Part shown: positions 44,185 through 64,000 of the stretch, piece after piece
Numbering within the stretch: position 1 is the stretch's first letter
Layout of the letters: each line of letters starts with the position of its first letter
Origin: an uncultured Actinomycetota bacterium
GTDB lineage: Bacteria > Actinomycetota > Actinomycetes > Mycobacteriales > CADCTP01
Assembly: GCA_963728945.1 (NCBI GenBank)
Contig: CAVSMA010000002.1
Span: 674,723-738,722 of the forward strand
Reading direction: 5' to 3'
Length of the DNA stretch: 64,000 nucleotides
Notes under the pieces: model-generated
The model's database searches: none
The model's input: only the letters and a program-made list of their open reading frames with translations
Told to the model about the DNA's origin: nothing
Position numbers and translations under genes: made by a program

Positions 44185-45603
44185 GTGATCGGGCGGGTGT
44201 GGCGGGCGGTGGCGGGTGCCGCCGCGATGGTGGTGCTGGTGGCGGCGTGCGGCTCGGAGCCGGCGACGCGGTCCCGGGAGGACGCGATCCGGTCCACCGC
44301 GACCGCGGTCCCGTTCACCGGCTGCGGGAAGGTCGCGTGCACCGGCACCCTCGCCGGCGCCAAGTACGAGATCGAGATGCCACGCACGTGGAACGGCACG
44401 CTGCTGCTGTTCTCCCACGGCTACCGCCCGGCCCAGCCGGCGCCGCCGGACTTCGCGCCGGTGCAGGCCGACGCCCAGGACGCGCCGACCGACGCGGTCG
44501 CGACCGCGCTGCTGGCCAAGGGTTACGCGCTGGCCGGCTCGGCGTACGCCGGCAACGGCTGGGCCGTCGCCGACGGTGTCACCGCCGGCGAGCAGCTGCA
44601 TGACTTCTTCGTCCAGAAGGTCGGCAAGCCCGACCGCACGTACGTGTGGGGCGAGTCGCTCGGCGGCCTCGTCACCGAGCTGCTGGCGGAGAAGCACCCG
44701 GACTGGATCGCCGGCGCCGCCCCGCTGTGCGGCGTGCTCGGCGGCAGCAACCTCAACTTCGACCTCGCCCTAGACGTCGCCTACGGGGTGAAGACGCTGC
44801 TGGCGCCGGGCCTGAAGACCGACGACTACGCCTCGTACGACGAGGCGAAGGCAAGCTTCGAGCAGGCCCAGAAGGCGGTCCTGGCCGCCACCAACAGCAC
44901 CGCCGGCCTCGGCAAGCTGCTGTTGCTGGCCGCGCTGGTCGACGCGCCGACGCAGACCGCGAACTTCGACGGCTCCACCTTGCAGTCCCGCGGCGGCGCC
45001 CTGGTCGAGGGGATCCTCACCGGGCTCGCGTTCGGCACCACGATCCGGCAGGAGATCGAGGGCCGGGTCGGCGGCAACCCGTCCGGCAACGAGGACGCCG
45101 ACTACGCCACCCGCGTGTCCACCTCCGAGCGGGCGCTGATCGAGAGCGTCGCGCCCGGCTCGACCGCGGCCAACCTCGCGCTGCTGGCCAACGGCAGCCG
45201 GGTCGCGCCGGACGCCGCCGCCCGGGCCAAGTTCGCCACCCTCGGCACGCCGACCGGCGCGATCACGGTGCCGACGCTGACCTTGCACACCGAGGCGGAC
45301 CCGCTGGTGCTGGTGCAGAACGAGTCGGTGTTCGCCGGCAAGGTCGCCGCGTCGAAGGCCAAGACCGCCGACCTGGTGCAGCTCTACACGAAGGCGCCGG
45401 CCCGCTACGCCAAGCCCGCGCCGTACGGGGCGGGGCACTGCAACTTCACCACGGACGAGCTGACCGGCTCGGTGGCCGCGCTGGACGGCTGGGTGCGCGG
45501 CGGCGTCTACCCCGCCGGCCCGGCGGTGACCGCCGCGTTCGGTTCGGACCCCGGGCTCGACCTCAGCTACCGGCCCGGACCGTGGCCGGCCGCCACCTCC
45601 TGA
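44185..45603 (+). CDS. secreted lipoprotein, probable alpha/beta-fold hydrolase
   Basis: 472 aa. Lipobox VVLVAACGS. Nucleophile-elbow-like GESLGG. The exact family is not recognised. Confidence 0.6.
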   Translation: MIGRVWRAVAGAAAMVVLVAACGSEPATRSREDAIRSTATAVPFTGCGKVACTGTLAGAKYEIEMPRTWNGTLLLFSHGYRPAQPAPPDFAPVQADAQDAPTDAVATALLAKGYALAGSAYAGNGWAVADGVTAGEQLHDFFVQKVGKPDRTYVWGESLGGLVTELLAEKHPDWIAGAAPLCGVLGGSNLNFDLALDVAYGVKTLLAPGLKTDDYASYDEAKASFEQAQKAVLAATNSTAGLGKLLLLAALVDAPTQTANFDGSTLQSRGGALVEGILTGLAFGTTIRQEIEGRVGGNPSGNEDADYATRVSTSERALIESVAPGSTAANLALLANGSRVAPDAAARAKFATLGTPTGAITVPTLTLHTEADPLVLVQNESVFAGKVAASKAKTADLVQLYTKAPARYAKPAPYGAGHCNFTTDELTGSVAALDGWVRGGVYPAGPAVTAAFGSDPGLDLSYRPGPWPAATS

Positions 45604-46879
45604 CCAGCGTCGTCCGGGCGGTCCAGGACAGCCCGAGCACGGTGGCGGTCAGCGCGACCGCCAGCGCGGCGCCGACGACCTCGGTCAGCGAGTGGTGCGC
45701 GACGGTCGCCACCAGCACGGCCTCGGCGGCGACGATCACCCAGACCGCGATCGTCGCGCGCCCGCGGTCCGCCGCCAGCTGCGCGTAGAGCAGGAGCTGG
45801 ACGACCCCCAGCGCGGAACCGACCGCGACGAACATCCACGCCGGCCCGGCCAGCTCCCGGTAGACCGGGCCGCCCACCGCGGCCACCGCCAGCCCGCCGG
45901 CCAGCCGGGTCACGCCGGTCATCAGCAGGCCGAGCCCGGCCAGCACGGCCAGCCCGGTCCACAGCGTGCGGCCCGGCCGCGGCGAGGCGGCCAGCTGTGG
46001 CAGCAGCACCAGCACCACCGCCTGCGGCAGGAAGAACGCCGCCTTGGCCAGCACGGCGCCGGCCCCGTACAGGCCGGACGCGGCCGCCGGCAGGTAGTGC
46101 CGGGCCAGCACCGGGTCGAGGTTGGTGAGCAGGTAGAGCCCGGCCAGCGCCTGCCCGGCCACGAGCAGCTCGGCCACCCGCCAGCCGCCCCGGGCCGGCC
46201 GGGGCCGGCCGACCAGCAGCCAGGCGACCGCGGACGAGGCCAGCACGCCGGCGGCGACGCCGGCCAGCGCGCCGGTCACGTCGCCGAGCACGAGCAGGCC
46301 GGCGATCCCGCCGGCCACCCGGGCCGCCGCGTACACGATGAGGATCGCGGCGAGCCGGTGGAAGTCCCGCCGGCCCTGGGCGATCCCCTGCAGCGCGGCC
46401 AGCACGGTCGTCGCGGCGACACCGGCGGCGACCCAGACCGCGGCCGCGGGCCCGCCCAGGGACAGGAAGCGGTCGAGCGCCGGCGCCGCCAGCACACCGA
46501 CCAGCAGCATCGTGCCGGCGGCGGCCAGCCCGAGCCCGACCGCCTCGGCCGTAGCCCGCCCGCCGGTGCCGCCGGCTCGCACCACCCGGACCGCGACGAC
46601 CGCCTGCAGCGCGAGCGCCGGGACCGAGGCCACCAGCGTGACGGCGAGCAGCGCGACGAACACCCCGTACTGCTCCGGCGCCAGCAGCCGAGCCCCGGCC
46701 AGGCTCAGCCCGTACGAGAGCAGGTTGGCGACGGTCGTGCCGGCCGCCACCGCGATCCCGCCGGCGGCGACGGTCCGCCCCGCCGGCGGGTCGGACAGCG
46801 TCGGGCTGGTCGTGCTCAGTGCGGGCTCCCCACTCCTCGGCGGCTCGCCTTGGTACCACGGACCGGCTGTCCGGCGCAC
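45563..46879 (-). CDS. polysaccharide-biosynthesis/MOP-superfamily flippase (Wzx/MurJ-like)
   Basis: 438 aa, about 12-14 hydrophobic helices. GTG start is 10 nt after the kinase stop. The 3' end overlaps the convergent hydrolase gene by 41 nt. Confidence 0.65.
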   Translation of the reverse strand: MRRTAGPWYQGEPPRSGEPALSTTSPTLSDPPAGRTVAAGGIAVAAGTTVANLLSYGLSLAGARLLAPEQYGVFVALLAVTLVASVPALALQAVVAVRVVRAGGTGGRATAEAVGLGLAAAGTMLLVGVLAAPALDRFLSLGGPAAAVWVAAGVAATTVLAALQGIAQGRRDFHRLAAILIVYAAARVAGGIAGLLVLGDVTGALAGVAAGVLASSAVAWLLVGRPRPARGGWRVAELLVAGQALAGLYLLTNLDPVLARHYLPAAASGLYGAGAVLAKAAFFLPQAVVLVLLPQLAASPRPGRTLWTGLAVLAGLGLLMTGVTRLAGGLAVAAVGGPVYRELAGPAWMFVAVGSALGVVQLLLYAQLAADRGRATIAVWVIVAAEAVLVATVAHHSLTEVVGAALAVALTATVLGLSWTARTTLVRRWRPATVRAGS

Positions 46880-46889
46880 GAGGACGGGC

Positions 46890-47906
46890 TCAGGCCCGCC
46901 AGGTGGTCAGGCCCCGGCGCTCGAACGCGACGTCGGTGACCACGCCGCCCATCCGGGTCAGCGCCTCGGCCAGCCGGTGCTTCCGGGCGAAGTCGCAGTA
47001 GAACAGGATGTAGCCGCCACCCCCGGCGCCGGTGACCTTGCCGCCGAGCGCGCCGGCCCGCATCGCCACGTCGTAGGCCTCCTCGATGAAGTCGGTGGCG
47101 ATCAGCGGGGACATCCGCTTCTTCTGCTTCCACGCCTCGCCGAGCAGCGAGCCGAACTCGGACAGCTCGCCGCGCAGCAGCGCCGACTTCATCGCCACCG
47201 CCAGCTCCTTCTGCGCCCGCAGCCCGGCCAGCGTCTCCAGCTCGCCGCCGGCCAGCCGGGCGGTCTGGTCCTCGATGATCAGGGCCGACTGCCTGGTCGT
47301 GCCGGTCCAGCACAGCAGCAGGTTCAGCTGCAGCTCGTCGACGACCGAGTCGTTGACCCGCAGCGGGTTGACGATCACCCGCTCGCCGAACTCGATGAAG
47401 TTGAACCCGCCGAAGGTGGCCGCGTAGTGGTCCTGGTGGCCGCCGCGGATGCGCAGGTCGACCCGCTCGGCCTGGTAGGCGAGCTCGGCCACCTCGTAGT
47501 CCGTCAGCGGCAGCCGGTGGTGCTCGCGCAGCAGCCCGACCAGCGCGACCAGCATCGTCGAGGACGAGCCGAGCCCGGAGCCGGGCGGCGCGCTGGAGCG
47601 CAGCAGCAGGTCGAAGCCGCTGCCGGGGCCCGCGCCGTCGCCGCCGAGCCGGCGTACGGCGGCCTTGACCAGATCGAGCTCGCCGTCGAAGGACGGCTCG
47701 TCCCGGGCGTCGAAGTCGAGCGACACGCCGAGGTCGAGCGAGTGCACGCAGATCCGCTGGTCCACCCGCGGCGTCAGCGAGCCGTACGCGTACCGGTCGA
47801 TGGTGGCGGACAGCACGGCGCCGCCCTCGGTCTCCGGGAACGGCGCCACGTCCGTGCCGCCGCCGGCGAAGCTGAGCCGCAGCGGGGCCCTGGACCTCAC
47901 GACCAT
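46890..47906 (-). CDS. GHMP-family sugar(-phosphate) kinase (COG2605/HddA-like)
   Basis: 338 aa. Motif II PPGSGLGSSST, motif III KVTGAGGGGYILF. N-terminal RAPLRLSFAGGGTD. Confidence 0.8.
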   Translation of the reverse strand: MVVRSRAPLRLSFAGGGTDVAPFPETEGGAVLSATIDRYAYGSLTPRVDQRICVHSLDLGVSLDFDARDEPSFDGELDLVKAAVRRLGGDGAGPGSGFDLLLRSSAPPGSGLGSSSTMLVALVGLLREHHRLPLTDYEVAELAYQAERVDLRIRGGHQDHYAATFGGFNFIEFGERVIVNPLRVNDSVVDELQLNLLLCWTGTTRQSALIIEDQTARLAGGELETLAGLRAQKELAVAMKSALLRGELSEFGSLLGEAWKQKKRMSPLIATDFIEEAYDVAMRAGALGGKVTGAGGGGYILFYCDFARKHRLAEALTRMGGVVTDVAFERRGLTTWRA

Positions 47907-47983: not shown

Positions 47984-48376
47984 ATGGACGTGCATCTGCC
48001 GCGGTCCGGCGGCCGCGGACAGCCGGTCGGCACCCGCATCTGCCTGCTGCTCGCCGCGCTCGCCCTGCTCGCCTGCGTCTACCTGCTGGTCTCCCCGCTG
48101 GAGCGGCCGACGAGCCAGGGACCGCCGTTCGACTGCGGCACCGCGCTGACCGAGCCGTCCGGCGGGTTCGCGGCCGCGGTCTGCGGTGACATCAACCTGC
48201 GCCGGCAGCTGCAGGCCGGCGCGGTCGGCCTGGCCGCGGTCGTGCTCGCCGGCGGCGGGTGGCTGGCGTTCGGCCCGGCCTGGCGGCGGCGGTCGCAGGG
48301 GCCGCCGTTCGAGGACGAGGACGGCCTGCCCACCGAACGCGGGCACGACGGCCGCGGCGCCGCCGGCATGCCCTAA
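47984..48376 (+). CDS. hypothetical 2-TM membrane protein
   Basis: 130 aa. Helices ICLLLAALALLACVYLLV and AVGLAAVVLAGGGWLAF. The SQGPPF motif is duplicated, once after each helix. Confidence 0.5.
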   Translation: MDVHLPRSGGRGQPVGTRICLLLAALALLACVYLLVSPLERPTSQGPPFDCGTALTEPSGGFAAAVCGDINLRRQLQAGAVGLAAVVLAGGGWLAFGPAWRRRSQGPPFEDEDGLPTERGHDGRGAAGMP

Positions 48377-48433
48377 TGCCCCGCGTCAGAGGTTTCGTGC
48401 CGGTTCACGAAACCTCTGACGCGGGGCACTAGG
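48372..48433 (+). promoter_or_regulatory. perfect 23-bp (extended 27-bp) inverted repeat filling the whole intergenic gap; candidate RBS-sequestering or coupling hairpin, or an I-shaped terminator
   Basis: Arms are TGCCCCGCGTCAGAGGTTTCGTG (48377-48399) and CACGAAACCTCTGACGCGGGGCA (48406-48428), with loop CCGGTT. The upstream TAA (48374-48376) lies in the extended left arm. GTG 48434 directly follows the right arm. Confidence 0.6.
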
Positions 48434-49288
48434 GTGCCCGCCGTGGACGCCGCCGCCTTCGCCGCCGAGCTCGACGGCCTGTTCTCCGGACCGCTGGAAG
48501 ACGGGACGCCGGCCGACCCCAGGTTCGCCGAGGTCACCGCCGCCGTGCCGGGCTTCACCACGCCGGCCGAGCTTGCCGTGCTCAACCTGGCCGCCCGCCG
48601 GCTGCCGGCTGGCGAGGCCTACCTGGAGGTCGGCACGTTCAAGGGTCGCTCGCTGGCCGGGACGCTGCTGGACGCGCCGGATCGGCCCTACGTCGCGGTC
48701 GAGAACTTCCAGGAGTTCGGCATGCTCGCGGCCGAGTCCAGGGCCGAGCTGCAGTCCGTGCTGGACGCGGCGTCCCGGCCGGTCACCCTGCACGACGGCG
48801 ACTGCTTCGCGGTGCTCGCCCGCCGGGACGCGGTGCCGGCCCCGGTCGGCGTCTACTTCTACGACGGCGCGCACACCGGGCTGGCGCACTACCTGGCGCT
48901 CGGCGTGGTCGAGCCGCTGCTCGCCGACGAGGCGGTGGTGCTGGTCGACGACGCGAGCTGGCCGATGGTCGCCGCCGCGACCCGCCGCTACGTCGACCGG
49001 CACCAGGGCTGGACCGTGCTGCGGGACATCCGCGCCGCCGCCGACCACGACGAACGGTGGGCCAACGGGCTGCTGGTGCTGCGTTACCGCCGGCCGCCGG
49101 GCGCGCCGCGGGCGATGGCCGGTGACGTCCGCTGGCGCCGGCTGCTGCAGGTGCGTGCCCGCGGGCCGGCGACCTCGCTGGTCTGGCGGGCGCTGCACCG
49201 GTTCCCCGGGTTGGTGCCGCTGGCCAAGCGGGTCGTGCCGAAGTCGTCGCGGACGGTGCCGGCCGACCCGGTCGGCCCGGCGAGCTAG
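48434..49288 (+). CDS. class I SAM-dependent methyltransferase (Methyltransf_24/CmcI-like)
   Basis: 284 aa. Motifs YLEVGTFKGRSL and VYFYDGAHT (DGxH), typical of this methyltransferase group. Confidence 0.7.
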   Translation: MPAVDAAAFAAELDGLFSGPLEDGTPADPRFAEVTAAVPGFTTPAELAVLNLAARRLPAGEAYLEVGTFKGRSLAGTLLDAPDRPYVAVENFQEFGMLAAESRAELQSVLDAASRPVTLHDGDCFAVLARRDAVPAPVGVYFYDGAHTGLAHYLALGVVEPLLADEAVVLVDDASWPMVAAATRRYVDRHQGWTVLRDIRAAADHDERWANGLLVLRYRRPPGAPRAMAGDVRWRRLLQVRARGPATSLVWRALHRFPGLVPLAKRVVPKSSRTVPADPVGPAS

Positions 49289-49313: not shown

Positions 49314-50561
49314 CTAGCCCGAGCCGAGCGGGGCCGGGTCGAGCGAGCCGGTCGGGATCCGGTCCCGCAGCACCAGCAGCGTGGCCGCCACCGCGAGCGC
49401 GCCGGTGCAGACCAGGCTGACCGCAAGGATCGCGGCGGGGGAGTCGTGCGGCCCGACCGCGATGACCAGCGCCTCGACCGCGACCACCACCCAGAGCAGC
49501 CGGCCCGGCCGCGGGTCGCCGGCCGCGACGGCGGCGAGCAGAGCCAGCTGCACCAGCGCCCAGAGCGTGCCGAGGATCGCGAACGGCACCGCGAGGTTCA
49601 CCGCCTCGGCGTAGCCGGGGTCGTCGCCGGCGATCACCCGGACCACCGGCCCGGCCGCGACCGCGGCGACCAGGATCCCGGCCGCGCCCACCCCGCCGGC
49701 CGCGGCGGCCGAGCGCAGCAGCAGCCCGCGGCCGGAACCGTCGCGGGCCAGCCGCGGGAACACCAGCGCCGGCACGAACTGGGCGCCCCACAGGCAGGCC
49801 TTGCCGAACAGCGCGGCCAGAGCGTACGCGCCCGACTCCTCGCGGGACAGGAAGTGCCGGGCCAGCAGCAGGTCCACGTTGGACAGCACGATCACGCCGG
49901 CGATCGCCGAGCAGGCCCTGGCCAGGTCGGCGAGCAGGTCCCGGGTCCGGCCGGGCACGCTCCAGCTGTCCGGGCCGCACATCCACCACAACCCGGCCGC
50001 GGCGGCGAAGGTGCCGACCGCGAGCGCCGCCATCGCGCCGGCCACCGACAGCGCGAGCAGCGCGGTGACCACGCCGGCGGCGAACCGGGCCAGCGCGGTC
50101 AGCAGCTGCCCGGCGGCGAACGCGGTGTAGCGCTCGTGCCCGAGCAGGCCACCGAGCAACGCGCCCTGCACCGAGTACGGCAGCAGCATCACGCCGAGCC
50201 AGAGCGCCGGCCACGGGCTGCCGAGGTGGAAGAACGCGTCCGCGACCGGGGCCAGCACGATCACCAGCCCGCCGACCACGGCGCCGACCGTGATCGACAG
50301 CCGCAGCCCGGCCCGCTCGTTGGCGCCCGCGGGCAGCTCGGCCGCCGCGGTACGCCGGGCCAGCACGTAGGTCAGCGCGCCGGCCGGGATGCCGCCGATC
50401 AGGCCCACCCCGAGCAGCGCGCCGAGCGCGCCGTACTCCGCCGGCCCGAACGAGCGGGTCAGCAGCACGGTCAGGCCGTAGCCGAGGGCGTTCGACAGCA
50501 CCGACGCGACCCCCAGCAACACCCCCGCCCGGGCCAGCGACGTGCCACCGCGCTGCGCCAT
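49314..50561 (-). CDS. polysaccharide-biosynthesis/MOP-superfamily flippase (second copy)
   Basis: 415 aa, polytopic. N-terminus ARAGVLLGVASVLSNALGYGLTVLLTRSFGPAEYG is typical of Wzx-like exporters. Divergent from the AftD-like gene. Confidence 0.7.
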   Translation of the reverse strand: MAQRGGTSLARAGVLLGVASVLSNALGYGLTVLLTRSFGPAEYGALGALLGVGLIGGIPAGALTYVLARRTAAAELPAGANERAGLRLSITVGAVVGGLVIVLAPVADAFFHLGSPWPALWLGVMLLPYSVQGALLGGLLGHERYTAFAAGQLLTALARFAAGVVTALLALSVAGAMAALAVGTFAAAAGLWWMCGPDSWSVPGRTRDLLADLARACSAIAGVIVLSNVDLLLARHFLSREESGAYALAALFGKACLWGAQFVPALVFPRLARDGSGRGLLLRSAAAAGGVGAAGILVAAVAAGPVVRVIAGDDPGYAEAVNLAVPFAILGTLWALVQLALLAAVAAGDPRPGRLLWVVVAVEALVIAVGPHDSPAAILAVSLVCTGALAVAATLLVLRDRIPTGSLDPAPLGSG

Positions 50562-50606: not shown

Positions 50607-50616
50607 GTCTGGGCGC

Positions 50617-53600
50617 GTGGAGGACGTGCGGCCGGTCTCGTGGTGGACGCCCACCCGGACCGCGGCCGTCGTCCTCTGGGTGGTGCTGGCCGAGGTGGTG
50701 CTGCTCAGCTCGTTCGGCTCGTTCGTGGTCGACACCAAGCCGGAGCTCTACCTGGCCCCGTGGCGCAGCGCCGCCGCATACCTGTCCGCCTGGCAGGCGA
50801 ATCCGCAGCTGGGCTTCCCGTCGTTCAACGTCGGCCTGGCGCCGGTCGCGGCCACGGTCGGGCTGATCCAGGCGGTCGGGATCCCGCCCGAGCTGTCGGT
50901 GCGGGTGCTGCGGCTGCTGCTGTTCGCGGTCGGCTCGCTCGGCGCCGCCCGGCTGTACCGGTCGCTGCGGCCGGGCTCGGACCCGCTCGGGCCGCTGGTC
51001 GCCGGCACCGTGTTCGTCGCCAACCCGTACGTGGTCGTGGCCGGGACGACGCAGGCGATCCTGCTGCCGTGGGCGCTGCTGCCCTGGCAGCTGCTCTGCC
51101 TCGTGCATGCGCTGCGGGTGCCGGCCGGCGCCGGCCGCTGGGCCAGGTGGCGGTGGCCGGCCGGGTTCGCGCTCGCGTTCGCCGCGACGTCCGGGATGAA
51201 CGCGGGCGTGGTGCCGCTGTTCCAGCTCGTCGCGGTTCCGGTCGTGGTCGCGGTGGTCCGGCCGGAGTCGTGGCGGCGCGCGCTGGCGGTGGTCGGCCGG
51301 TGCGCGGTGCTGGTGGTCGCCGTCTCGCTGTACTGGATCGTCCCGTCGGTGCTGGCCGTCGGCGCCGGCGCGACCGTGGTCGACAACTCGGAGACGCCAC
51401 AGGGCATCTCCGGCCCGTCGTCGGCCGCCGAGGTGCTGCGCGGGCTGGGCCTGTGGCCGCTGTACGGCTCGGGCGGGCGCGGCGTGTGGCTGCCGGAGTT
51501 CGCCGGCTACCTCACCTCGCCGGTCGTCGTGCTCGCCTCGTTCGCGCTGCCGGTGCTGGCCGTCGCCGGTGCGCTGCTGGTCCGCGGACCGCTGCGCCGG
51601 CTCGGGGTCGGCCTGCTGCTGGTGGCGGTGCCGATCATGGTCGGGCTGTTCCCGGTGGCGCATCCGGCGCCGTTCGGCCGCGCGCTGGACTGGGCGTTCG
51701 TGCACCTGCCGTTCGCGGCGGCGTTCCGGACCACGAACAAGGTCGGCGCGGTGCTGGTGCTCGGCGTGACGTTGCTGGTGACCGGCGGCGTGGTCGCGGC
51801 CTGGCGGCGCTGGCCCGGCCGCGGCCCGCGGGCAGCGGTGGCGGCGGCCGTCGCGCTGGTGCTGGCCGGCTCGACCCTGCCGGCCTGGACCGGCCACCTG
51901 TACGTCAGCTCGGTCGACCTGCCGCCGTACTGGAAGCAGGCAGCGGCCGAGCTCGACGCCGGGCCGCCGGACCAGCGGGTCTGGTTGGTGCCCGGCGAGG
52001 TGCAGGCGTCGTACCGGTGGAGCGAGGACCGCCCGGACGACCTGTCCACCTCGGTGCTCGACCGCCCGTCGGTGGTGCGCACGGTGATCCCGGTGACCTC
52101 GGCGCCGGCGGCGAACCTGCTCGCCGAGCTGGACGGCGCGCTGCAGGAGCAGCGGCTGCCGCCCGGCGCGCTGTCCACCGCGGCCCGCTACCTCGGGGTC
52201 GGCGACCTGCTGCTGCGCAACGACGTCGTCTGGGAGCTGACCGGCGGGGCGCGGCCGGCGCAGGTGCGGGCACAGCTGGACGCCGACCCCGGGCTGCGGC
52301 AGGACGGGGACTTCGGCGGGGCGGGCCAGAACACGATCTCGCCGACGGTGCCGCCCGAGTCGGCCGGCGAGGCGGCACTGCCACCCCTGCAGCGGTATGC
52401 CGTGGACGGCGCCCGCGCGGTCACCCGCACCGACGCCGCCGCGGCCACCGTGCTGGTCGACGGGGACGGCGGGGCGCTGGCACCGATGACCGCGGCCGGG
52501 CTGCTGCCGGGCTCGCCGACCTTCCGCTACCTCGCCGACCTGTCGCCGGCCGAGCTCGCCCGGCTGCTGCCGGAGACCGCGCGGATCGTGCTGACCGACA
52601 CCAACCGGCGGCGGACCACGGTGGCCGGCCGGCTGGCCAACGGCACCGGCCCGCTGCTGTCGGCGGCGGCCGACCCGGGCGGGACGCGCGCGCTCGGCCC
52701 GGTCGGCGACCAGACCACGCTGACCGTGACCGGCGGCGCGGCGACCGCGACCGAGTCGGGCTCGGCGTTCGGGCCGGTCGCGGCGGCCAGCCCGGAGAAC
52801 GCGGCCGACGGCGATCCCCGCACCGCCTGGCAGTTCGGCGACTTCGGCCGGGCGGTCGGGCAGTCGGTCACGCTGCGGTTCGCGGCCCGGGCGGTGCCCC
52901 GGGTCTCGGTCGCGGTCCGGCCCGGGGCGGTGGCGATCAGTCGTGTCCGGATCGAGGTCGGCGGGCAGCACGCGGACCTCGGGGTCGGGCCGTCCGGGGT
53001 GGCGACATATCGGCCGGCGGCTCCGGTGCGGGCCGACTCCGTGCGGGTGACGGTGCTGGCGACCAGCGGCGAGGGCTTCAGCCGGGTCGGCATCGACGAG
53101 GTCACCGTCCCCGGCGTGCGGCTGACCAGGGTGGCCACCCTTCCGTCCACTGTGGACAGTCTGGTCGCCGGGCTGCCGGCCGCGGCGCGGCAGCGGCTGG
53201 CCGGCACACCGGTGGACGTGCTGCTCAGCCGGGCCCGCGGCGCCACGTCCGCGGACGACGAGGAGACCGGGCTGGCCCGGGACTTCACCGTCCCGGTGCC
53301 GCGCACGGCGGTCGCCAGCGCGCTGATCCGGCCGTCCGCCCCGCTGCCCGAGGCCGACCTCGACCGGCTCGCCGGCTACACCGGGCCGGTGCGGGCGACC
53401 TCAACGTCGCGGGCGTTCGGGCTGCCGACCGTGCGGGCGTCGCAGGCGCTGGACGGGCGGCCCGACACGGCCTGGCTGCCGGCGGTGCCGGTGGTCGGGC
53501 AGTCGCTGCGGATCAGCGCGCCACCGCGCCGGGTCGACCACGTGGATCTCACCCAGGTCGGTCGCCGGCTCACCGACTGGGCAACCCGGGTGCGGGTCAC

Positions 53601-55991: not shown

Positions 55992-57043
55992 CGCGGCGGC
56001 TGCTGTGGGTCTCGCTGGCCGACCAGCGCCCGGGTCGGGAGCAGCGCTGGCTGTCGCTGCTGCCCGGCACCCGGCTGACCGCGCTCGCCGCCCGGCGCCC
56101 GCTGCCACCGGCCGACTGGGTGCCGGCCACGTACCGGCGGCCGGTGCGGCGGTTCGTCGAGGCCGGCGCGCTGGCCTGGGTGCGCGAGCTGGATGCGCTG
56201 CCACCGGCGTACGACTGGGTCGGCTCGCTGGAGCTCTGCTCGCTGGTGACCGGGCAGGCCGCCGGGTACGCCCGCCGGCACCGGCTGCGCCAGGTCGTGC
56301 TCACCTGGGAGAACGATCCGCGCCAGCCGCTCTACGCGGTCCCGCCGTACCGGACCGCGCTGCATCGGTCGCTGGCGACGGCGGACCTGTTCCTCTGCCT
56401 GGTCGACGCGGCCGCCGACCACCTGCGGGTGCTCGGCGTCGAGGAGGACCGGATCCGGGTGGTCAAGCCCGGCGTCGACACCCAGGTGTTCCGGCCCGCG
56501 GCGGCGCCGGTCGCCGAGCCCGTGCTGGCGTTCGTCTCGCCGGTCGCGGCGAACAAGGGGATCGACCGGGTGCTGGCCGCCTTCGCGCTGGTCCGGGCGA
56601 AGATCCCGGAGGCGCGGCTGCTCGTGCTCGGCGACGGCCCGCTGGTGCCGGTGGTACGCGGGCCCGGGGTCGAGTACCTCGGCCGCGGCGACGCCGCCCG
56701 GGTCGCGGCCGTGCTCCGGTCGGCGGCGGTGTTCGTCACCGCGCCCCGCTCGACCTGGAAGTGGTCCGAGCAGTTCGGCCTGGCCTATCTCGAAGCGATG
56801 GCCTGCGGGCTGCCCGTCGTGACGACGGCCTGCGGCACCAACCACGAGATCGTCGTGCCGCCGAACGAGCGGGTCGTCGACGAGGCCGGAGCGCTGGCCG
56901 AAGCGCTGCTAGGGCTGCTCGCCGACCCGGCCCGGCGGGCGGCGGTCGGCGCGCACAACCGCCGGTACGTCGAGGCGCACCACCAGCTCGCCGCGCAGTG
57001 CGCGCGGATGGGTGCCGCACTGACCGAGTTCGAGCGCCGGTGA
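55988..57043 (+). CDS. family 4 (GT-B) glycosyltransferase
   Basis: ATG 55988 overlaps the upstream TGA. 351 aa. C-terminal EQFGLAYLEAMACGLPVVTT (E-x7-E). Confidence 0.8.
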   Translation: MTRRLLWVSLADQRPGREQRWLSLLPGTRLTALAARRPLPPADWVPATYRRPVRRFVEAGALAWVRELDALPPAYDWVGSLELCSLVTGQAAGYARRHRLRQVVLTWENDPRQPLYAVPPYRTALHRSLATADLFLCLVDAAADHLRVLGVEEDRIRVVKPGVDTQVFRPAAAPVAEPVLAFVSPVAANKGIDRVLAAFALVRAKIPEARLLVLGDGPLVPVVRGPGVEYLGRGDAARVAAVLRSAAVFVTAPRSTWKWSEQFGLAYLEAMACGLPVVTTACGTNHEIVVPPNERVVDEAGALAEALLGLLADPARRAAVGAHNRRYVEAHHQLAAQCARMGAALTEFERR

Positions 57044-58758
57044 GCCGCGACCCGCTCGGCGCGGCGACAAGTCGCGGCCGGCTCGGTGCGGCGGTGCGGC
57101 GCGGCCCGCTGGGCGCAGCCGTCGGGCTCGTCGCCGGCCTGCTCGTGCTGGCGCCGGTGCTCGGCCGCGGCGTCGTCCTCTCCTACGACATGGTGTTCGT
57201 GCCGGACCCGCCGATCACCGGGTCCGTCCTCGGCACGGACGGCTCGGTGCCGCGGGCGGTGCCGACCGAGCTGCTGGCCGACCTGCTGGCCCGGGTGCTG
57301 CCGGTGGTGGTGGTCCAGCAGGGACTGCTGGTGGCGGTGTTCGTGCTGGCCGGCGCCGGCGCGGCGCGGCTGGTGCCGGGGCTGCCCGCCGCCGCGGCGG
57401 CGGCGCTCGCCTACGCCTGGACCCCGTACATGGCCGAGCGGCTGCTGATCGGGCACTGGCCGTTCCTGCTGGGGTACGCGGTGCTGCCGTGGGTGGTCGG
57501 CGCCGCCCTCGCGGCCCGGCGTGGCGGGTCAGTGCGCCCGCTGCTGCTCTGGCTGGCCGCCGCGGCGACCGCCGGCTCGACGTCGGCGCTGATCGCCACC
57601 GCCACCGCGCTCTGCGTGGTCGGCCTCCGTCCGGCGGCCCGGTTCGCCGGGGTGCTCGGCTTCGCGGCGGCGGTGAACCTGCCGTGGATCGTGCCGGCGC
57701 TGGCGCGGCCGGGCGGGGTGCCGGCCGACCCGGCCGGCGTCGCCGCGTTCGCCGCCCGGTCCGACACGCCGCTCGGGCTGGCCGGCAGCCTGCTCACGCT
57801 CGGCGGGATCTGGAACCCGGCCACCGTCCCGTACGGCCGCGACTCCGCGCTGGCCACGGTGGCGCTGGTCGCCGTGCTGGCCGCGCTGGTGCTCGGGCTG
57901 CGACCGGTGCTGGCCGAGAGCCCGGGCCTGGTCGCCGCCGGTGCCGGCAGCCTGCTGCTGGCGGCGGCCGGCGCGGTGCCCGGCCTCGATGCCGTGCTTC
58001 GGGCGGTGGTGGTGCACGTGCCCGGCGGTGGCCTGCTCCGGGACGGGCAGAAGCTGCTGGCGCCGGTCGCGCTGGTGATCGCGCTCGCGGCCGGGCACGC
58101 GGTGGGCCGGCTGGCCAGGGCCCCGCGGACGGCGCCCTGGGCGGTGCTGCTCGCCGTCCTGCCGGTGCTGGCGCTGCCCGGCCTCGCCTGGGGTGTCGGC
58201 GGCCGGCTGGCCGCCGCGCACTACCCGGCCGACTGGCTGGGGCTGCGGGCGGCGGTCGGGCAGGCCCCGCCGGGAGAGGTGGCCGCGCTGCCCTGGGGCA
58301 CGTACCGGCGGCTGGACTGGGCGGGCGACCACGTCGTGCTCGACCCGCTGCCGCGGCTGCTGGACCGGCGCACGCTGGCCGACGACGCGCTGCCGCTGTC
58401 CCGCGTGACCGTGCGCGGTGAGGACCCGCGGGCGGCCCGGGTCAGCGCCGGGCTTGCCGCCGGCGAGCGGCTGCCGGACCTGTTGCGGTCGGCCGGGGTC
58501 CGGTACGCGGCGGTGCACCGCAGCCAGCCCGGCTCGGCCGCGACCGAGCGGGCGCTGGCCGGGCTGCCGGTGCTGTTCAGCAGCCGGGACCTGCTGCTGG
58601 TCGAGCTGCCCGGCCCGACCGGGCCCACCCCGGGGGACCGGCCGTGGGTGGCCGTGCTCGGCCTCGGCGGTGCCGTTCTCTGCCTGGGCGCGGTGATCGT
58701 CCGGAGAAGACCCGGACTGCTACGCTCTCGCACACCCGACGAGCGAACCGGAGCGTGA
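57040..58758 (+). CDS. uncharacterised polytopic membrane protein (possible GT-C-like glycosyltransferase or polymerase)
   Basis: GTG 57040 overlaps the upstream TGA. 572 aa. About 10 hydrophobic helices, then a ~170-aa soluble C-terminal region and a final TM helix. First-loop motif YDMVFVPDPP. Confidence 0.6.
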   Translation: MSRDPLGAATSRGRLGAAVRRGPLGAAVGLVAGLLVLAPVLGRGVVLSYDMVFVPDPPITGSVLGTDGSVPRAVPTELLADLLARVLPVVVVQQGLLVAVFVLAGAGAARLVPGLPAAAAAALAYAWTPYMAERLLIGHWPFLLGYAVLPWVVGAALAARRGGSVRPLLLWLAAAATAGSTSALIATATALCVVGLRPAARFAGVLGFAAAVNLPWIVPALARPGGVPADPAGVAAFAARSDTPLGLAGSLLTLGGIWNPATVPYGRDSALATVALVAVLAALVLGLRPVLAESPGLVAAGAGSLLLAAAGAVPGLDAVLRAVVVHVPGGGLLRDGQKLLAPVALVIALAAGHAVGRLARAPRTAPWAVLLAVLPVLALPGLAWGVGGRLAAAHYPADWLGLRAAVGQAPPGEVAALPWGTYRRLDWAGDHVVLDPLPRLLDRRTLADDALPLSRVTVRGEDPRAARVSAGLAAGERLPDLLRSAGVRYAAVHRSQPGSAATERALAGLPVLFSSRDLLLVELPGPTGPTPGDRPWVAVLGLGGAVLCLGAVIVRRRPGLLRSRTPDERTGA

Positions 58759-58946
58759 CGCAGGTGCTCAGCGACGATCGGCGGACCGGTGCCAGCGACC
58801 GGGGCCAGATCCTCATCTCGACCCTGGTGGCGGCCGTGGTCGGCGGGCTGCTGGCGCTCGGCGCCTCGCTCGTGCTGGTCTCCTCGGCCTCGAACACCAA
58901 CGCGCCGCCGGTGAACAAGCCGCTGATCACCTACGACCAGAAGTAG
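58755..58946 (+). CDS. small single-TM protein (63 aa)
   Basis: GTG 58755 overlaps the upstream TGA (GTGA). One TM helix, ILISTLVAAVVGGLLALGASLVLV. Good GC3. Confidence 0.5.
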   Translation: MTQVLSDDRRTGASDRGQILISTLVAAVVGGLLALGASLVLVSSASNTNAPPVNKPLITYDQK

Positions 58947-58952
58947 CGCCGG

Positions 58953-60128
58953 TCAGCCGGCGGCCTCGACCGACGACGGCTCGGCCGACCGGTCGCCGGC
59001 CGGAAGAGCCGCCGCGCGCGGCGGCAGGCCGGTCAGCGCGCGCAGCTCCGCCTCCACCGCGGCGGCCGTCGCCGGCCAGCTGAACCGGGCCGCGTGCACC
59101 CGGGCGGCCCGGCCCATCGACTCCCGCAACGCCGGCTCGGTCAGCAGCCGGCGCAGCGCGACGGCGAACCCGGTCAGGTCGTCGGCGAGCAGCCCGGTCT
59201 CCCCGTCGAGCACCGACTCGGTCGGCCCGCCGGCGGACCGGAACGCCACCGTCGGCGTGCCGTGCGCCGCGCTCTCCACCACCGCGAGGCTCCAGCCCTC
59301 CTTCACCGACGGCAGCGCATGCACCCAGGCCGCGGCGAGCAGCCGGTGCTTGGTCACGTCGTCCACATATCCGGCGAACGTCACCGCGTCGCCGACTCCG
59401 AGCCGCTCGGCGTACGCCCGCAGCTGCGGCTCCCAGTAGCCGTGCCCGACGACGGTGAGCGTCGCGCCGGGGAGCGCGGCGACCGCGTCGATCGCCAGCT
59501 CGACCCGCTTGTGCGGCACCAGCCGGCCGAGCACGACCACGCTCGGCTGCGGGCTGCGCGGCCAGGCCGCGGTGGCCACCGGCAGCACCGGCGCGTCCAG
59601 CCCGGAGTAGACGACCCCGACCCGGTCCGCGTCGACGCCGACGGCGACCAGGTCGGACCGGGTGGCGGCGGAGACGGTCAGGTAGCGGCAGCGCCGGTAG
59701 ACCCGCGGCGCCAGCCGGGACTCCAACCACCAGCCGACCCGGCCGAGGGTCGGGCCGAAGACCGCGGTCCACTGCTCGCGGTGCAGGTGGTGGGTCACAT
59801 TGACGACCAGCGCCCGGGTGAACAGCGGCGCCCAGAACGGCATCCCGTTCTGCACGTCCAGCACCACGTCGTAGCCACCCCGCTGCCGGGCCAGTGCCAG
59901 CGCGGCCCGCGGGTAGACGGTGAACCGGCCGCCGCGGCGCACGTACGCCACCCCGTCGACGGTCTCGTCCGGCGCCGCGCCGGGGTAGCGGGCGCACCGC
60001 ACGGTCACCTCGTGCCCGAGCGCCGCCAGGCCGCTGGCCACCCGCTCGCAGAAGCTCTCCGCACCGCCGCCCTCGGGATGCCCCGAATCACGCCAGTTCA
60101 GGAGCAAGATGCGCAGCCCGTCCTGCAT
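58953..60128 (-). CDS. family 4 (GT-B) glycosyltransferase
   Basis: ATG 60128 inside the 420-aa ORF gives 391 aa (MQDGLRILLLNWRDSGHPEGGGAE...). E-x7-E motif EGWSLAVVESAAHGTPTVAF. Confidence 0.85.
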   Translation of the reverse strand: MQDGLRILLLNWRDSGHPEGGGAESFCERVASGLAALGHEVTVRCARYPGAAPDETVDGVAYVRRGGRFTVYPRAALALARQRGGYDVVLDVQNGMPFWAPLFTRALVVNVTHHLHREQWTAVFGPTLGRVGWWLESRLAPRVYRRCRYLTVSAATRSDLVAVGVDADRVGVVYSGLDAPVLPVATAAWPRSPQPSVVVLGRLVPHKRVELAIDAVAALPGATLTVVGHGYWEPQLRAYAERLGVGDAVTFAGYVDDVTKHRLLAAAWVHALPSVKEGWSLAVVESAAHGTPTVAFRSAGGPTESVLDGETGLLADDLTGFAVALRRLLTEPALRESMGRAARVHAARFSWPATAAAVEAELRALTGLPPRAAALPAGDRSAEPSSVEAAG

Positions 60129-60213
60129 CAGCCTCGACGCCCCCTTAGCGCTATAGAGGCGGCAGCGTAGTGGATCCCAGCGCCTCGTGTTACCCACCGG
60201 TACGGTCTGCGGC

Positions 60214-61062
60214 ATGTCGCGGCAGTGCGAGGTGTGCGGAGCCCGTCTGCGGGACTGGGTCCTGCGCGGCGGCGGAGTGCTGTTCCGCTGCCCGGACTGC
60301 GCCCACGTCGAGCGCGACCTGGCGGCCTGCCCGGCCGGCGCCCGGGATGTCGGCTACGGCGGCGACCCCGGCCTGGACGCCGCCCGGCTGCGGCTGACCG
60401 AGCGGCGGCTGCGCGCGCTCGTCCCGGGCGGCCGCTCGGTGTTCGAGATCGGGTACGGCTCGGGCGCGCTGCTGCGCCGGTTCCTCGACGCCGGCTGGTC
60501 CGTCGCCGGCGTCGACAAGGGCCAGCTCGAGGTCGGGGTCGACCCGGAGGTGCAGCGCACTGGGCGGCTCGACCGCGGCGAGCTGGAGGCGGTGCCGACC
60601 GCTGGCGAGCACGACCTCGTCGTCGGCGTGCACGTGCTCGAGCACCTGCGCGATCCGGCGGCCGGCCTGGCCGCCGCATACCGGTTGCTGCGTCCGGGCG
60701 GCACGCTGGCGCTGGTCACCCCGACCGCCGACTCGCTCGGACCGGACTGGTTCGGCGCCGCCTGGTGGCTGCTGGAGGACCCCACCCACGTGCGGTTCTT
60801 CTCTCCCGAGTCGGCTGGCCGCGCGTTGCGCCACACCGGGTTCACCGGCGTGCGGATGCGCCGGCTGGTGCTCGACACGCTGTCGATGGAGGCGGCCAGC
60901 GTGCGGCGGGCGATCGACCGGCGGCCGCGCCCGCGCGGGGTGCTGACCGAGCGTGGCACCGTGCTCGCCGCGCTGGCCGCGGCACCGATCACCGTTGCGG
61001 CGCGGGCCGTCCTGCCCCGGCTGCGGCCGTCGCTGGAACTGGTGGCTCACCGGCCCGGGTGA
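60214..61062 (+). CDS. class I SAM-dependent methyltransferase with an N-terminal zinc ribbon
   Basis: ATG 60214. CEVCG...CPDC (4 Cys), then motif I VFEIGYGSGALL and VVGVHVLEHL. Confidence 0.8.
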   Translation: MSRQCEVCGARLRDWVLRGGGVLFRCPDCAHVERDLAACPAGARDVGYGGDPGLDAARLRLTERRLRALVPGGRSVFEIGYGSGALLRRFLDAGWSVAGVDKGQLEVGVDPEVQRTGRLDRGELEAVPTAGEHDLVVGVHVLEHLRDPAAGLAAAYRLLRPGGTLALVTPTADSLGPDWFGAAWWLLEDPTHVRFFSPESAGRALRHTGFTGVRMRRLVLDTLSMEAASVRRAIDRRPRPRGVLTERGTVLAALAAAPITVAARAVLPRLRPSLELVAHRPG

Positions 61063-61114
61063 GAGTCGGGCTCCAACGCCCAAACGGTGCGGATCGCGGA
61101 CTAGGGTTGCATGC

Positions 61115-61879
61115 GTGCAACGATCCCGGGAGGCTGGCGGCGCCGTCCTCCCGCCAACCTCCGCCGCCCGCGCTGACTCCGCAGGTCTGCGACGATCGGC
61201 CAACCTGCTCCGGGCGTTCCGGGTCGAGCAGACCGACCCGGCGAGGTTCTACGGTTTGCTCGCCCGAGACTCGGTACGCATGGTGGGCGAGCACGGTTCA
61301 CTGGCGGGCCGCACGGTCCTCGACGTGGGTGCCGGACCGGTGCAGTTCGCCGCCGCGTTCGCCGCCGCCGGCGCCCGCTACGTCGCGCTCGACGCCGATC
61401 CCGCCGAGCTGCGCACCCGGCCGGCGATCGCCGCCCGGGGCGAGCGGCTGCCGCTCGCCGACCGGTCGGTCGACGTCTGCTTCTCCTCCAACGTCGTCGA
61501 GCACGTGCCGGCGCCGTGGCGGTTCGCCGACGAGCTGGTCCGGGTGACCCGCTCGGCCGGCCTGGTCGTCCTCGCGTACACGAACTGGCTCTCGCCGTGG
61601 GGCGGGCACGAGACCTCGCCCTGGCACTACCTGGGCGGCTACCCGGCCGCCGAGCGGTACGGCCGGCGCTACGGGCACCCGCCCAAGAACCGGTACGGCG
61701 CCGGCCTCTACCCGGTCTCGGTCGCCGCCGGGCTGCGCTGGGCCACCAGCCGTCCGGACGCCGAGCTGGTCGACGCACGGCCGCGCTACCTGCCGGCGTA
61801 CGCGCGGGCGCTGCTGCGGCTGCCGGCGCTGCGCGAGATCGCGACCTGGAACCTCTGGCTGGTGCTGCGCCGCCGATGA
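61115..61879 (+). CDS. class I SAM-dependent methyltransferase
   Basis: The start is uncertain (GTG 61115; the frame opens at 60953). Motif I VLDVGAGPVQFAAA, then VCFSSNVVEHV. Stop overlaps the next ATG (ATGA). Confidence 0.75.
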   Translation: MQRSREAGGAVLPPTSAARADSAGLRRSANLLRAFRVEQTDPARFYGLLARDSVRMVGEHGSLAGRTVLDVGAGPVQFAAAFAAAGARYVALDADPAELRTRPAIAARGERLPLADRSVDVCFSSNVVEHVPAPWRFADELVRVTRSAGLVVLAYTNWLSPWGGHETSPWHYLGGYPAAERYGRRYGHPPKNRYGAGLYPVSVAAGLRWATSRPDAELVDARPRYLPAYARALLRLPALREIATWNLWLVLRRR

Positions 61880-63999: not shown

Positions 64000-64000
64000 C

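Follow-up and report, generated by a model that had tools for sequence, protein, structure and literature searches.

What does a locus built around two relatives of the mycobacterial arabinosyltransferase AftD make in a bacterium in which none of the classical arabinogalactan genes lies nearby? We considered this question for a stretch of 64,000 nucleotides (the window) from an uncultured actinobacterium, positions 674,723 to 738,722 of contig CAVSMA010000002.1 (assembly GCA_963728945.1), in which 14 genes between 45.5 kb and the window end form the locus. A preliminary description, made from the letters and their open reading frames, had taken these genes for the assembly line of an envelope glycan, and gene calling with Pfam and NCBIfam scans recovered all 14 where it had placed them. 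We lean modestly towards the view that the locus is an expanded form of an ancient actinobacterial envelope module, made up of AftD, MmpA, a GT4 glycosyltransferase, an MtrP-type methyltransferase and a DUF2613-type peptide, which would assemble a lipid-linked, methylated and possibly heptose-containing glycan. Joined to this core would be an accessory sub-cluster comprising a second AftD, a GT2, a second GT4, two Wzx-like flippases, two methyltransferases and an HddA-type kinase.

Gene families were assigned by Pfam and NCBIfam scans. The G+C content of the window is about 75%, at which raw lists of open reading frames are swamped with spurious frames, and the coding frame of each region was therefore picked by third-position GC. 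Synteny was assessed from context look-ups of ten encoding contigs (L001-L010) and tblastn of the window proteins against them. These contigs include Ornithinibacter aureus (L003), Aeromicrobium wangtongii (L007), Mycobacterium (L008), Blastococcus (L009), Actinokineospora soli (L010) and two uncultured lineages (L005 and L006). The genome assemblies of O. aureus and A. wangtongii are GCA_009858245.1 and GCA_024584515.1, respectively. The best database matches to window proteins have 89-96% identity.

Two AftD-family proteins

Both large proteins of the locus are AftD-family GT-C enzymes, as had been supposed. AftD-like 1 (1525 amino acids; 50617-55194, plus strand; most plausible start GTG 50617) matches PF11847 (GT-C_AftD, formerly DUF3367; gathering cutoff 26 bits) with 199 bits. 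AftD-like 2 (61876 to beyond 64000, plus strand) continues past the window end, and its first 708 amino acids match the same family with 718 bits. Tan et al. (2020) already reported AftD homologues in 12 actinobacterial orders, so AftD outside the mycolata is not new in itself. Their cryo-EM structures of M. abscessus AftD (6W98, 6WBX and 6WBY) led them to E251, D474 and E475 as catalytic candidates and to R315 as the contact of the acyl carrier protein (ACP) phosphopantetheine.

AftD-like 2 aligns with 6W98 over residues 7-690 (phmmer, 484 bits) and conserves the putative catalytic residues E249 and D482/E483 and the ACP-contact residue R317. Among AftD2-type sequences E249 and R317 are strictly invariant, and the acidic pair reads DE in three and ED in Aeromicrobium. 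Identity to the AftD of Mycobacterium, Rhodococcus, Blastococcus, Actinoplanes, Pseudonocardia and Actinokineospora is 43-47%, and the full-length orthologue in L006 has 1386 amino acids with CBM_AftD and F5_F8 matches. AftD-like 2 is the predicted orthologue of canonical AftD.

AftD-like 1 is more distant. It has no phmmer match to the Protein Data Bank (PDB), 6W98 included, and is only 28% identical to AftD-like 2, or about 27% in the GT-C domain. A profile comparison with the GT-C alignment of AftD2 and 6W98 gave an hhalign probability of 100% (E 3.6e-47, 686 columns). Residues D32, E252, R320 and D467 are invariant over 16 family members; D467 is the acid retained from the D/E pair, the first acid being replaced by proline. 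Outside the GT-C domain, AftD-like 1 has a NADase_discoid match (42 bits, cutoff 38), a sub-threshold F5_F8_type_C match and three C-terminal transmembrane (TM) helices by hydropathy. Both proteins share with mycobacterial AftD the 11-TM GT-C super-domain and conserved catalytic candidates with the ACP-contact arginine, and probably also periplasmic carbohydrate-binding modules and a C-terminal TM bundle; AftD-like 1 differs from it in the single retained acid, the missing phmmer match to 6W98 and a Pro/Gly/Ala-rich insert.

The two proteins had been described as paralogues. Both do belong to the AftD family, but they are not simple duplicates: in a neighbour-joining tree, calculated without bootstrap or other support values, the family splits into two deep clades, and only AftD-like 2 groups with the AftD of the mycolata. 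The clade of AftD-like 1 holds sequences from Ornithinibacter, Knoellia, Demetria, Nocardioidaceae, the upstream copy of Aeromicrobium and metagenome-assembled genomes (MAGs), and no mycolata member was seen in it. A scan of species-representative genomes with AftD-like 1 returned one locus, in a Nocardioides MAG, at 40% identity. AftD-like 1 would thus represent a paralogue clade distinct from canonical AftD, to which, judged by sequence, it is unambiguously homologous.

The insert of AftD-like 1 spans about 190 amino acids (residues ~1230-1420). Within it lies a near-perfect 15-bp tandem repeat (window 54668-54834; 10.9 copies, 98% matches) that encodes (VGGAA)x10. The insert is missing from homologues, which cover only 79-85% of the query, and it may be a length-variable cytoplasmic linker. 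In L006, an AftD1-clade protein of 670 amino acids (2534-4546, minus strand) consists, as called, of the GT-C domain alone. An adjoining 355-amino-acid reading frame has AftD1-like C-terminal sequence, which points either to a split gene or to a minimal AftD of MmpA-like size. The 670-amino-acid protein hints at a route from AftD to MmpA-like proteins by loss of the carbohydrate-binding region.

The orthology of AftD-like 2 invites a reading of the locus as part of a true arabinan pathway. The enzymes concerned, AftD-like 2 and possibly also AftD-like 1 and MmpA, would then be arabinofuranosyltransferases that use decaprenylphosphoryl arabinose (DPA) and act on a polymer like arabinogalactan or lipoarabinomannan (LAM), with ubiA, dprE1/2 and the galactan or mannan genes elsewhere in the genome. 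We consider this unlikely. It draws on the 484-bit match to 6W98, the shared clade and the retained catalytic candidates, and also on taxonomy: the closest relatives that bear a name are MAGs of an uncultured 'Mycobacteriales bacterium', and the cluster is also found in Actinokineospora (Pseudonocardiaceae). The broad, GTDB-style Mycobacteriales includes families with arabinose-containing walls. Against it, Pfam scans found no Emb, Aft, UbiA, DprE or Glf-type gene among 30 other genes scanned in the 64-kb window; the preliminary description was right in this respect, and neither a DPA-pathway nor an Emb/AftA-C gene accompanies the locus in the window. Further evidence against an arabinan product comes from the mycobacterial phenotypes, the taxonomic spread of the cluster and its sugar-activation genes, and is given with each of these below.

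MmpA as a third GT-C protein

The locus had been described as built around two GT-C enzymes, with a 572-amino-acid polytopic protein of no stated family. That protein (57040-58758, plus strand) can be assigned: it passes the NCBIfam equivalog NF053599, MmpA, with 415 bits (cutoff 210; profile positions 3-528 of 543). Its orthologues in Aeromicrobium (387 bits), Ornithinibacter (323 bits) and L006 (383 bits) also pass this cutoff. An alignment of 20 MmpA-family sequences matches the AftD GT-C domain with an hhalign probability of 98.1% (E 1e-13, 398 columns). Hydropathy predicts 10 TM helices, and the AlphaFold2 model (mean predicted local distance difference test, pLDDT, 82.6; predicted template-modelling score, pTM, 0.85) places an alpha/beta domain at about residues 390-530. 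In a Foldseek search of this model against the PDB, AftD 6W98 ranked best and was followed only by other GT-C enzymes (STT3, PglB, ArnT, DPY19 and ALG9). Two acids are invariant in the 20 sequences, namely D50, just after TM1, and D435, aligned with the 'DEP' motif of AftD. Judged by this modelled fold and the invariant acids, MmpA could be an active GT-C enzyme; it is related to AftD and brings the GT-C proteins of the locus to three.

Since STT3 and PglB are the next structural matches after AftD, the locus could be imagined to serve protein O-glycosylation or heptosylation, in which a lipid-linked oligosaccharide is flipped and the GT-C enzymes act as oligosaccharyltransferases onto secreted or surface proteins. 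In some Gram-positive bacteria, the glycans of S-layer glycoproteins are made with GDP-heptose as donor. We find this explanation highly improbable. The matches to STT3 and PglB (TM-scores 0.40-0.45) are not specific, because all GT-C folds resemble each other, and by far the closest relative is AftD, a polysaccharide-acting protein with carbohydrate-binding modules. The locus also holds no candidate acceptor protein or S-layer gene.

According to the published account of MmpA (NCgl2761/Rv0226c), C. glutamicum needs the protein to acetylate and transport trehalose monocorynomycolate (TMCM). It described a polytopic protein with partial similarity to the AftD N-terminus and one extracytoplasmic domain near its C-terminus, and stated that homologues are confined to corynebacteria and mycobacteria. 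The predicted MmpA proteins of non-mycolate carriers contradict that restriction. The role in acetylation and transport, a genetic phenotype of C. glutamicum, probably does not hold in the literal sense where a lineage makes no mycolates.

The start of the window mmpA gene (57034-57116) carries a 27-bp unit in 3.1 copies (71% matches), encoding repeated PLGAA/RLGAA in the cytoplasmic N-terminus. Model confidence is low in this repeat region (pLDDT <50 for residues 1-16).

Correspondence with the Corynebacterineae block

MmpA is one of several genes that connect the right half of the locus to a known block in the Corynebacterineae. In C. glutamicum the order is cg3161 (AftD), cg3162, cg3163 (TmaT), cg3164, cg3165 (MmpA), cg3166 (putative glycosyltransferase), cg3167 and cg3168 (MtrP), equivalent to NCgl2757-2764. 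In mycobacteria it is MSMEG_0310 (MtrP homologue), MSMEG_0311 (GT4, equivalent to Rv0225), MSMEG_0315 (MmpA), MSMEG_0317 and MSMEG_0319 (TmaT). Rv0225/MSMEG_0311 is described as a monocistronic GT4 gene between the MtrP and MmpA homologues, essential and polar. Read in reverse, window positions 57040-61879 give a leftward methyltransferase gene, a rightward GT4 gene, a leftward small peptide gene and leftward mmpA, which is the pattern implied by Rv0224c, Rv0225 and Rv0226c and is also found in Actinokineospora soli.

The GT4 of this pattern, GT4b (391 amino acids; 58953-60128, minus strand; Glycos_transf_1 100 bits, Glyco_transf_4 70 bits), is monocistronic and divergent from the methyltransferases. 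The methyltransferase, MT11 (about 254 amino acids; 61115-61879, plus strand; chosen start GTG 61115), matches PF08241 Methyltransf_11 with 58.6 bits. From gene order and family, we suggest that GT4b is the positional counterpart of Rv0225/MSMEG_0311/cg3166 and MT11 that of MtrP (Rv0224c/NCgl2764). Searched against the PDB, MT11, GT4b and a second methyltransferase, MT24, had no relative past generic folds. An exhaustive MT11 search with cluster look-up returned no named mycolata member.

The small peptide is a 63-amino-acid single-TM protein (58755-58946, plus strand) that resembles DUF2613 (18 bits, under the cutoff of 22.1). Among three scanned orthologues two match DUF2613 weakly (13.7 and 15.6 bits) and one has no match. 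The protein shares its TM helix and a C-terminal (I/V)xY(D/G) tail with a genuine DUF2613 gene upstream of aftD in the Mycobacterium contig, which ends inside aftD and shows only the upstream DUF2613 and GH3 genes.

Taken together, the window has in common with Corynebacterium cg3161-cg3168 and Mycobacterium Rv0224c-Rv0228 plus Rv0236c/Rv0236A an AftD, MmpA, a monocistronic GT4 transcribed divergently between the methyltransferase and MmpA, a class I methyltransferase of the size of MtrP and a small peptide resembling DUF2613. It differs in lacking a TmaT-type acyltransferase and a homologue of NCgl2760/Rv0227c, and in having the second AftD, the GT2, the second GT4, the two Wzx-like proteins, two more methyltransferases and the candidate heptose kinase in addition. 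The preliminary description had spoken of an uncharacterised glycopolymer. The left half of the locus has no characterised counterpart, but the right half matches a Corynebacterineae block with published knock-out phenotypes. This goes part of the way towards a gene-for-gene match with a characterised cluster, although the biochemical product of that block is likewise unsettled. The locus belongs to no polysaccharide cluster that has been characterised biochemically, but its core matches a block that has been characterised genetically.

The knock-out phenotypes allow another explanation, in which the core (AftD2, MmpA, GT4b, MT11 and the peptide) mainly forms a scaffold or licensing complex for the modification and export of envelope glycolipids, and in which MmpA and AftD would mostly assist an acyltransferase and a transporter without catalysing a reaction themselves. 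The mmpA, mtrP and tmaT mutants of C. glutamicum phenocopy each other, with a defect in TMCM acetylation and transport and with lipomannan (LM) and LAM unchanged. A 2026 preprint predicts an AftD-TmaT heterodimer, with phenotypic correlations of r = 0.90-0.96, and a TmaT-sized acyltransferase-3 (AT3) gene directly follows AftD2 in L005, L006 and Aeromicrobium. However, the window has no Acyl_transf_3 gene, and none lies downstream of AftD2 in the close relative L004. The cluster carriers that can be named have no mycolic acids, so the role in trehalose-mycolate acetylation and export cannot apply to them as such. MmpA and both AftD proteins also keep invariant acids at GT-C catalytic positions, and the module sits among GT2/GT4, flippase and sugar-activation genes and in some lineages is fused to a GT4, which fits synthesis better than regulation. 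We therefore judge a mainly non-catalytic core to be quite unlikely. The same preprint reports that aftD phenotypes cluster with those of tmaT, mmpA, MSMEG_0311 and the mycolate-export genes and not with arabinogalactan genes, so that even in the mycolata the phenotypes argue against an arabinan role.

The missing acyltransferase may have a local cause. In L002, whose neighbouring genes are 85-95% identical to those of the window, a 640-amino-acid Acyl_transf_3 gene that is missing from the window lies between the genes for a small 2-TM protein and MT24 (L002 5301-8696; window 47984-48434). The 2-TM proteins of L002 and the window have only 41% identity. This interval looks like a hotspot of local replacement or deletion that left the window locus without an acyltransferase.

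Conserved synteny beyond the mycolata

The context look-ups show that the architecture of the locus recurs in Aeromicrobium, Ornithinibacter and Actinokineospora and, reduced, in Blastococcus. The locus of Aeromicrobium wangtongii (Propionibacteriales) reads ManC-like nucleoside triphosphate (NTP)-transferase, AT3/SGNH, AftD1, MmpA, small peptide, GT4b (minus strand), MT23 (a third methyltransferase), MT11, AftD2, AT3 (minus strand), HddA, GmhA and GmhB; its AftD2 is uncalled but present. In Ornithinibacter aureus (Micrococcales) the locus lies beside polA and reads AftD1, NTP-transferase, Wzx, GT2, GT4b (minus strand), MT23, MT11, HddA, GmhA, GmhB and MmpA. The same core is found in L005 and L006. 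Actinokineospora soli (Pseudonocardiales) has the AftD2 core with MmpA, and Blastococcus has MT24, Wzx, GT4b, MT11 and AftD2, with no MmpA in view. Conserved synteny thus spans at least four orders, and the carriers include three uncultured lineages.

Individual elements of the core are constant in their arrangement. Both GT4b and MT11 are seen in eight relatives, always with divergent transcription, and MT11 (50-92% identity) lies directly beside GT4b and/or AftD2 in all eight that cover that part. GT4b is 50-72% identical to genes at the same position and on the same strand in seven intact relatives (L001, L003, L005, L006, L007, L009 and L010); the copy in L002/L004, at 39% identity only, is apparently degraded. 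MT23 is more variable, being present in L002, L003, L006 and L007 and absent from L001, L005, L009 and L010.

This distribution bears on the arabinan pathway. Both AftD paralogues are clustered in Aeromicrobium, a member of the Nocardioidaceae, and the AftD1-type cluster occurs in Ornithinibacter, of the Intrasporangiaceae. To our knowledge, neither family is noted for arabinogalactan, which weighs against arabinan as the common product.

The position of the cluster may itself be old. A backbone of an ANTAR response regulator, a GNAT protein and polA is common to window 34027-44149 and positions 1-6694 of the Ornithinibacter contig, at 65%, 42% and 59% identity, respectively. That the glycan cluster comes right after polA in both suggests an old, stable chromosomal position. 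In the window polA occupies 41447-44149, directly upstream of the locus, as previously noted.

PF11271 ('PorA') genes edge the AftD2 core in five relatives, at L004 20807-21064, L005 19587-21116, L006 21616-21803, L009 9665-9988 and L010 466-1488. The carriers include the non-mycolate Blastococcus and Actinokineospora.

A possible link to heptose metabolism

Which sugars enter the pathway is suggested by the sugar kinase of the locus (46890-47906, minus strand; Pfam GHMP_kinases_N and GHMP_kinases_C). It matches the NCBIfam HddA model over its full length with 298 bits, under the equivalog cutoff of 600, and the PDB heptose kinases 3K85, WcbL 4USK/4USM and 4N3O, also over the full length, with 254-274 bits. 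From these similarities the kinase is a candidate D-glycero-D-manno-heptose 7-phosphate kinase of the HddA type. Its orthologues in Ornithinibacter, L006 and Aeromicrobium lie directly upstream of GmhA-like and GmhB-like genes, for which the best families are phosphoheptose isomerase and heptose-bisphosphate phosphatase, with scores below the curated cutoffs. A ManC-like NTP-transferase, again below its curated cutoff, is encoded in the Ornithinibacter and Aeromicrobium loci. Among the sampled loci, heptose genes were found only in those with an AftD1-type gene, and none was seen in the AftD2-only contigs L008-L010.

Compared with the four-step GDP-heptose pathway, which has been described in M. 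tuberculosis with GmhA as Rv0113, the full-length alignment of the kinase with HddA/WcbL-type enzymes agrees, as do the GmhA- and GmhB-like genes of the relatives and the ManC-like genes of two loci. The differences are that the window has the kinase only and that all four proteins fall below the NCBIfam equivalog cutoffs. The arabinose- or xylose-containing product that had been suggested finds no backing here, as the kinase points to GDP-heptose instead. For the arabinan pathway it is likewise unfavourable that the nucleotide-sugar genes linked to the cluster are of heptose type and not of arabinose type. In the literature we found no established heptose-containing envelope polymer of actinobacteria.

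The suggested product had come with a suggested host of Micromonosporaceae type. The taxonomy of the relatives offers nothing in favour of such a host, and both ideas were dropped.

Gene fusions

Fusion proteins found in the exhaustive search with MT11 connect several of these genes in single polypeptides. An MT11-type domain is fused to a GT4b-type domain in at least six protein clusters, in which the GT4 part is closer to GT4b than to GT4a, the other GT4 of the locus. These fusions cannot be frameshift artefacts, because GT4b and MT11 are on opposite strands in every unfused locus. MT11-type domains are also fused to the C-terminus of AftD1-like proteins (1769 and 1858 amino acids) and to the N-terminus of AftD2-like proteins. 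The latter could be a read-through of the ATGA junction that couples the two genes. A further fusion, P0420, combines an MT11-type with a Methyltransf_24 domain; blastp of P0420 against the MT24 of the window gave no match at E <= 1e-5. From these fusions we expect MT11 to work at the cytoplasmic face and to share one pathway with GT4b, the AftD proteins and a methyltransferase of the Methyltransf_24 type.

Other genes of the locus and the window

The left half of the locus begins with two genes on the minus strand, one for a Wzx-like polytopic protein and one for the kinase. The former (45563-46879; 438 amino acids, about 10 TM helices by hydropathy) has no Pfam or NCBIfam match; it is 32% identical over 394 amino acids to the second Wzx-like protein and has orthologues in L002, L007, L009 and L010. 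The second, a putative flippase of the MOP family (multidrug/oligosaccharidyl-lipid/polysaccharide exporters; 49314-50561, minus strand; 415 amino acids, 9 TM helices by hydropathy), is divergent from the five-gene chain that starts with AftD-like 1. It matches Polysacc_synt (PF01943) with 28.5 bits, against a cutoff of 28.2, over profile positions 6-255 of 274, and orthologues are present in L002, L003, L005, L007, L009 and L010. Of the two MOP flippases that had been described, the second thus stands on a marginal family match, and the first is Wzx-like by its paralogy to the second.

Between the kinase and the second flippase lie the small 2-TM protein (47984-48376, plus strand; 130 amino acids, helices by hydropathy) and MT24 (48434-49288, plus strand), a methyltransferase dependent on S-adenosylmethionine (SAM) that matches PF13578 Methyltransf_24 with 36.9 bits (cutoff 26.3). 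The 2-TM protein has weakly conserved counterparts in L003, L005 and L002 (40-65% identity) and no family match above cutoff, and MT24 is kept beside the cluster in L002, L005, L006, L009 and L010.

In the five-gene chain AftD-like 1 is followed by a soluble GT2 (55191-55991, plus strand; 266 amino acids; Glycos_transf_2 84.5 bits) and GT4a (55988-57043, plus strand; 351 amino acids; Glyco_trans_1_4 and Glycos_transf_1), and then by MmpA and the small peptide. The GT2 has orthologues in L002, L003, L005 and L006 at 57-90% identity. It has no predicted TM helix, and its PDB matches are weak and generic for GT2, including DPMS at E 3.7e-4, so that a function as polyprenyl-phosphate sugar synthase is unsupported. 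GT4a occurs in L001, L002 and L005 but not in L003, L006 and L007, and is therefore regarded as an accessory gene. Overlaps of 4 nucleotides (GTGA/ATGA), which the preliminary description had also reported, can be read from the sequence at 55191, 55988, 57040, 58755 and 61876. Four of these lie in the five-gene chain and imply co-translation, and the fifth couples MT11 to AftD-like 2. A scan of 45-64 kb for promoters and terminators gave nothing beyond shuffled expectation.

The remaining methyltransferase, MT23 (60214-61062, plus strand; PF13489 Methyltransf_23, 79 bits), has an N-terminal CxxC...CxxC zinc ribbon, encoded at 60214-60320, with a weak Zn_ribbon_4 match. In a 2026 preprint ML1347, a Trm112-like zinc-binding protein, was proposed as a separate partner required by mycobacterial MtrP, and the fused zinc ribbon of MT23 might represent something similar.

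Between polA and the cluster is a gene for a predicted lipoprotein of 472 amino acids (44185-45603), with an N-terminal signal containing a cysteine, an alpha/beta-hydrolase core and weak matches of polyhydroxyalkanoate (PHA)-depolymerase or esterase type. It is kept in L002, absent from L003 and L005, and could be an envelope esterase associated with the locus. The 30 other window genes scanned with Pfam have core-chromosome functions and include the ANTAR regulator, the GNAT protein, a Liv transporter, other ABC transporters, two-component systems, trpE/C/B/A, lgt, gltB and a xanthine-dehydrogenase set. Positions 34000-38300, which include branched-chain amino-acid ABC transporter genes (a periplasmic binding protein and two permeases), have a G+C content of 0.67-0.69 compared with about 0.75 elsewhere. 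They may be acquired DNA or merely a compositionally distinct operon.

Discussion

The proposed envelope-glycan function agrees with the gene content, since the GT2, the two GT4s, the three methyltransferases, the two Wzx-like proteins and the sugar kinase fit a lipid-linked, probably methylated glycan. We suspect that the soluble GT4 and GT2 enzymes draw on nucleotide sugars, GDP-heptose probably among them; the GHMP family of the kinase is clear, and the pathway is suggested by the neighbouring genes in relatives. At the inner face of the membrane, GT4 and GT2 enzymes would build a lipid-linked oligosaccharide and/or polyprenyl-phosphate sugar donors, and the SAM-dependent methyltransferases would O-methylate the glycan. 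The Wzx-like proteins, as their family implies, may flip the lipid-linked intermediates. Outside the membrane, AftD-like 1, AftD-like 2 and MmpA, which have the fold and the conserved acids, would extend or branch the glycan with polyprenyl-phosphate sugars, and the carbohydrate-binding modules of AftD may hold the polymer during extension. The product would be a probably methylated, possibly heptose-containing glycan anchored to the wall or the membrane.

Such a scheme resembles the assembly of LM/LAM-type lipoglycans by Wzx and GT-C proteins, in which soluble GT-B and GT-A enzymes act on the inner side, the membrane contains flippase-like proteins and several GT-C enzymes act on the outer side. 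It differs in that no PimA/PimB, MptA/B, Emb or Ppm1 homologue is identifiable in the locus. In the literature on DUF3367, on AftD in Streptomyces and on heptose in actinobacteria, we found no description of the cluster outside the mycolata.

Several points weigh against a lipid-linked, heptose-containing glycan made by an ancient module. From the heptose pathway the window has the kinase alone, itself below the HddA equivalog cutoff (298 against 600 bits), and tblastn with the Ornithinibacter homologues finds no GmhA, GmhB or HddC in it. The orthology of GT4b with Rv0225 and of MT11 with MtrP comes from gene order and family and not from direct sequence comparison, and the Wzx assignment is marginal (28.5 against 28.2 bits). 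No priming phosphoglycosyltransferase or polyprenyl-phosphate sugar synthase is confidently identifiable in the window. In C. glutamicum, MmpA and MtrP mutants have a defect in trehalose-mycolate transport with LM and LAM unchanged, which does not obviously indicate glycan synthesis. Lastly, outside the mycolata none of these genes has a known enzymatic activity, and a product has yet to be detected.

In non-mycolate bacteria the module is clustered with heptose genes, flippases, a second AftD and GT2 and GT4 enzymes, which suggests glycan synthesis as its ancestral function. It is possible, though doubtful, that the set of AftD, MmpA, GT4 (Rv0225), MtrP and DUF2613 is a pan-actinobacterial machine older than mycolic acids and arabinogalactan, which ancestrally built a methylated, heptose-containing lipid-linked glycan and in which MmpA is an active GT-C enzyme and not a scaffold for the delivery of trehalose lipids. 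If this is true, the mycolate-export phenotypes of aftD, mmpA, mtrP and MSMEG_0311 mutants would be downstream effects of losing that glycan, and the orphan GDP-heptose pathway of M. tuberculosis would have a destination.

These genes are of interest in pathogens. AftD, Rv0226c (MmpA) and Rv0224c (MtrP) are reported to be essential in M. tuberculosis, and MSMEG_0311 in M. smegmatis and M. bovis, and drug development against all of them is under discussion. No reaction is known for MmpA or MtrP, and among the GT4 enzymes of M. tuberculosis only Rv0225 is said to lack an assigned pathway, while the assignment of AftD as an arabinosyltransferase conflicts with the recent clustering of phenotypes. 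Glycan synthesis offers a testable alternative for the role of these genes. The relatives of the locus also point to non-pathogenic fast growers (Aeromicrobium, Nocardioides and Intrasporangiaceae), in which the module may be non-essential and could be deleted.

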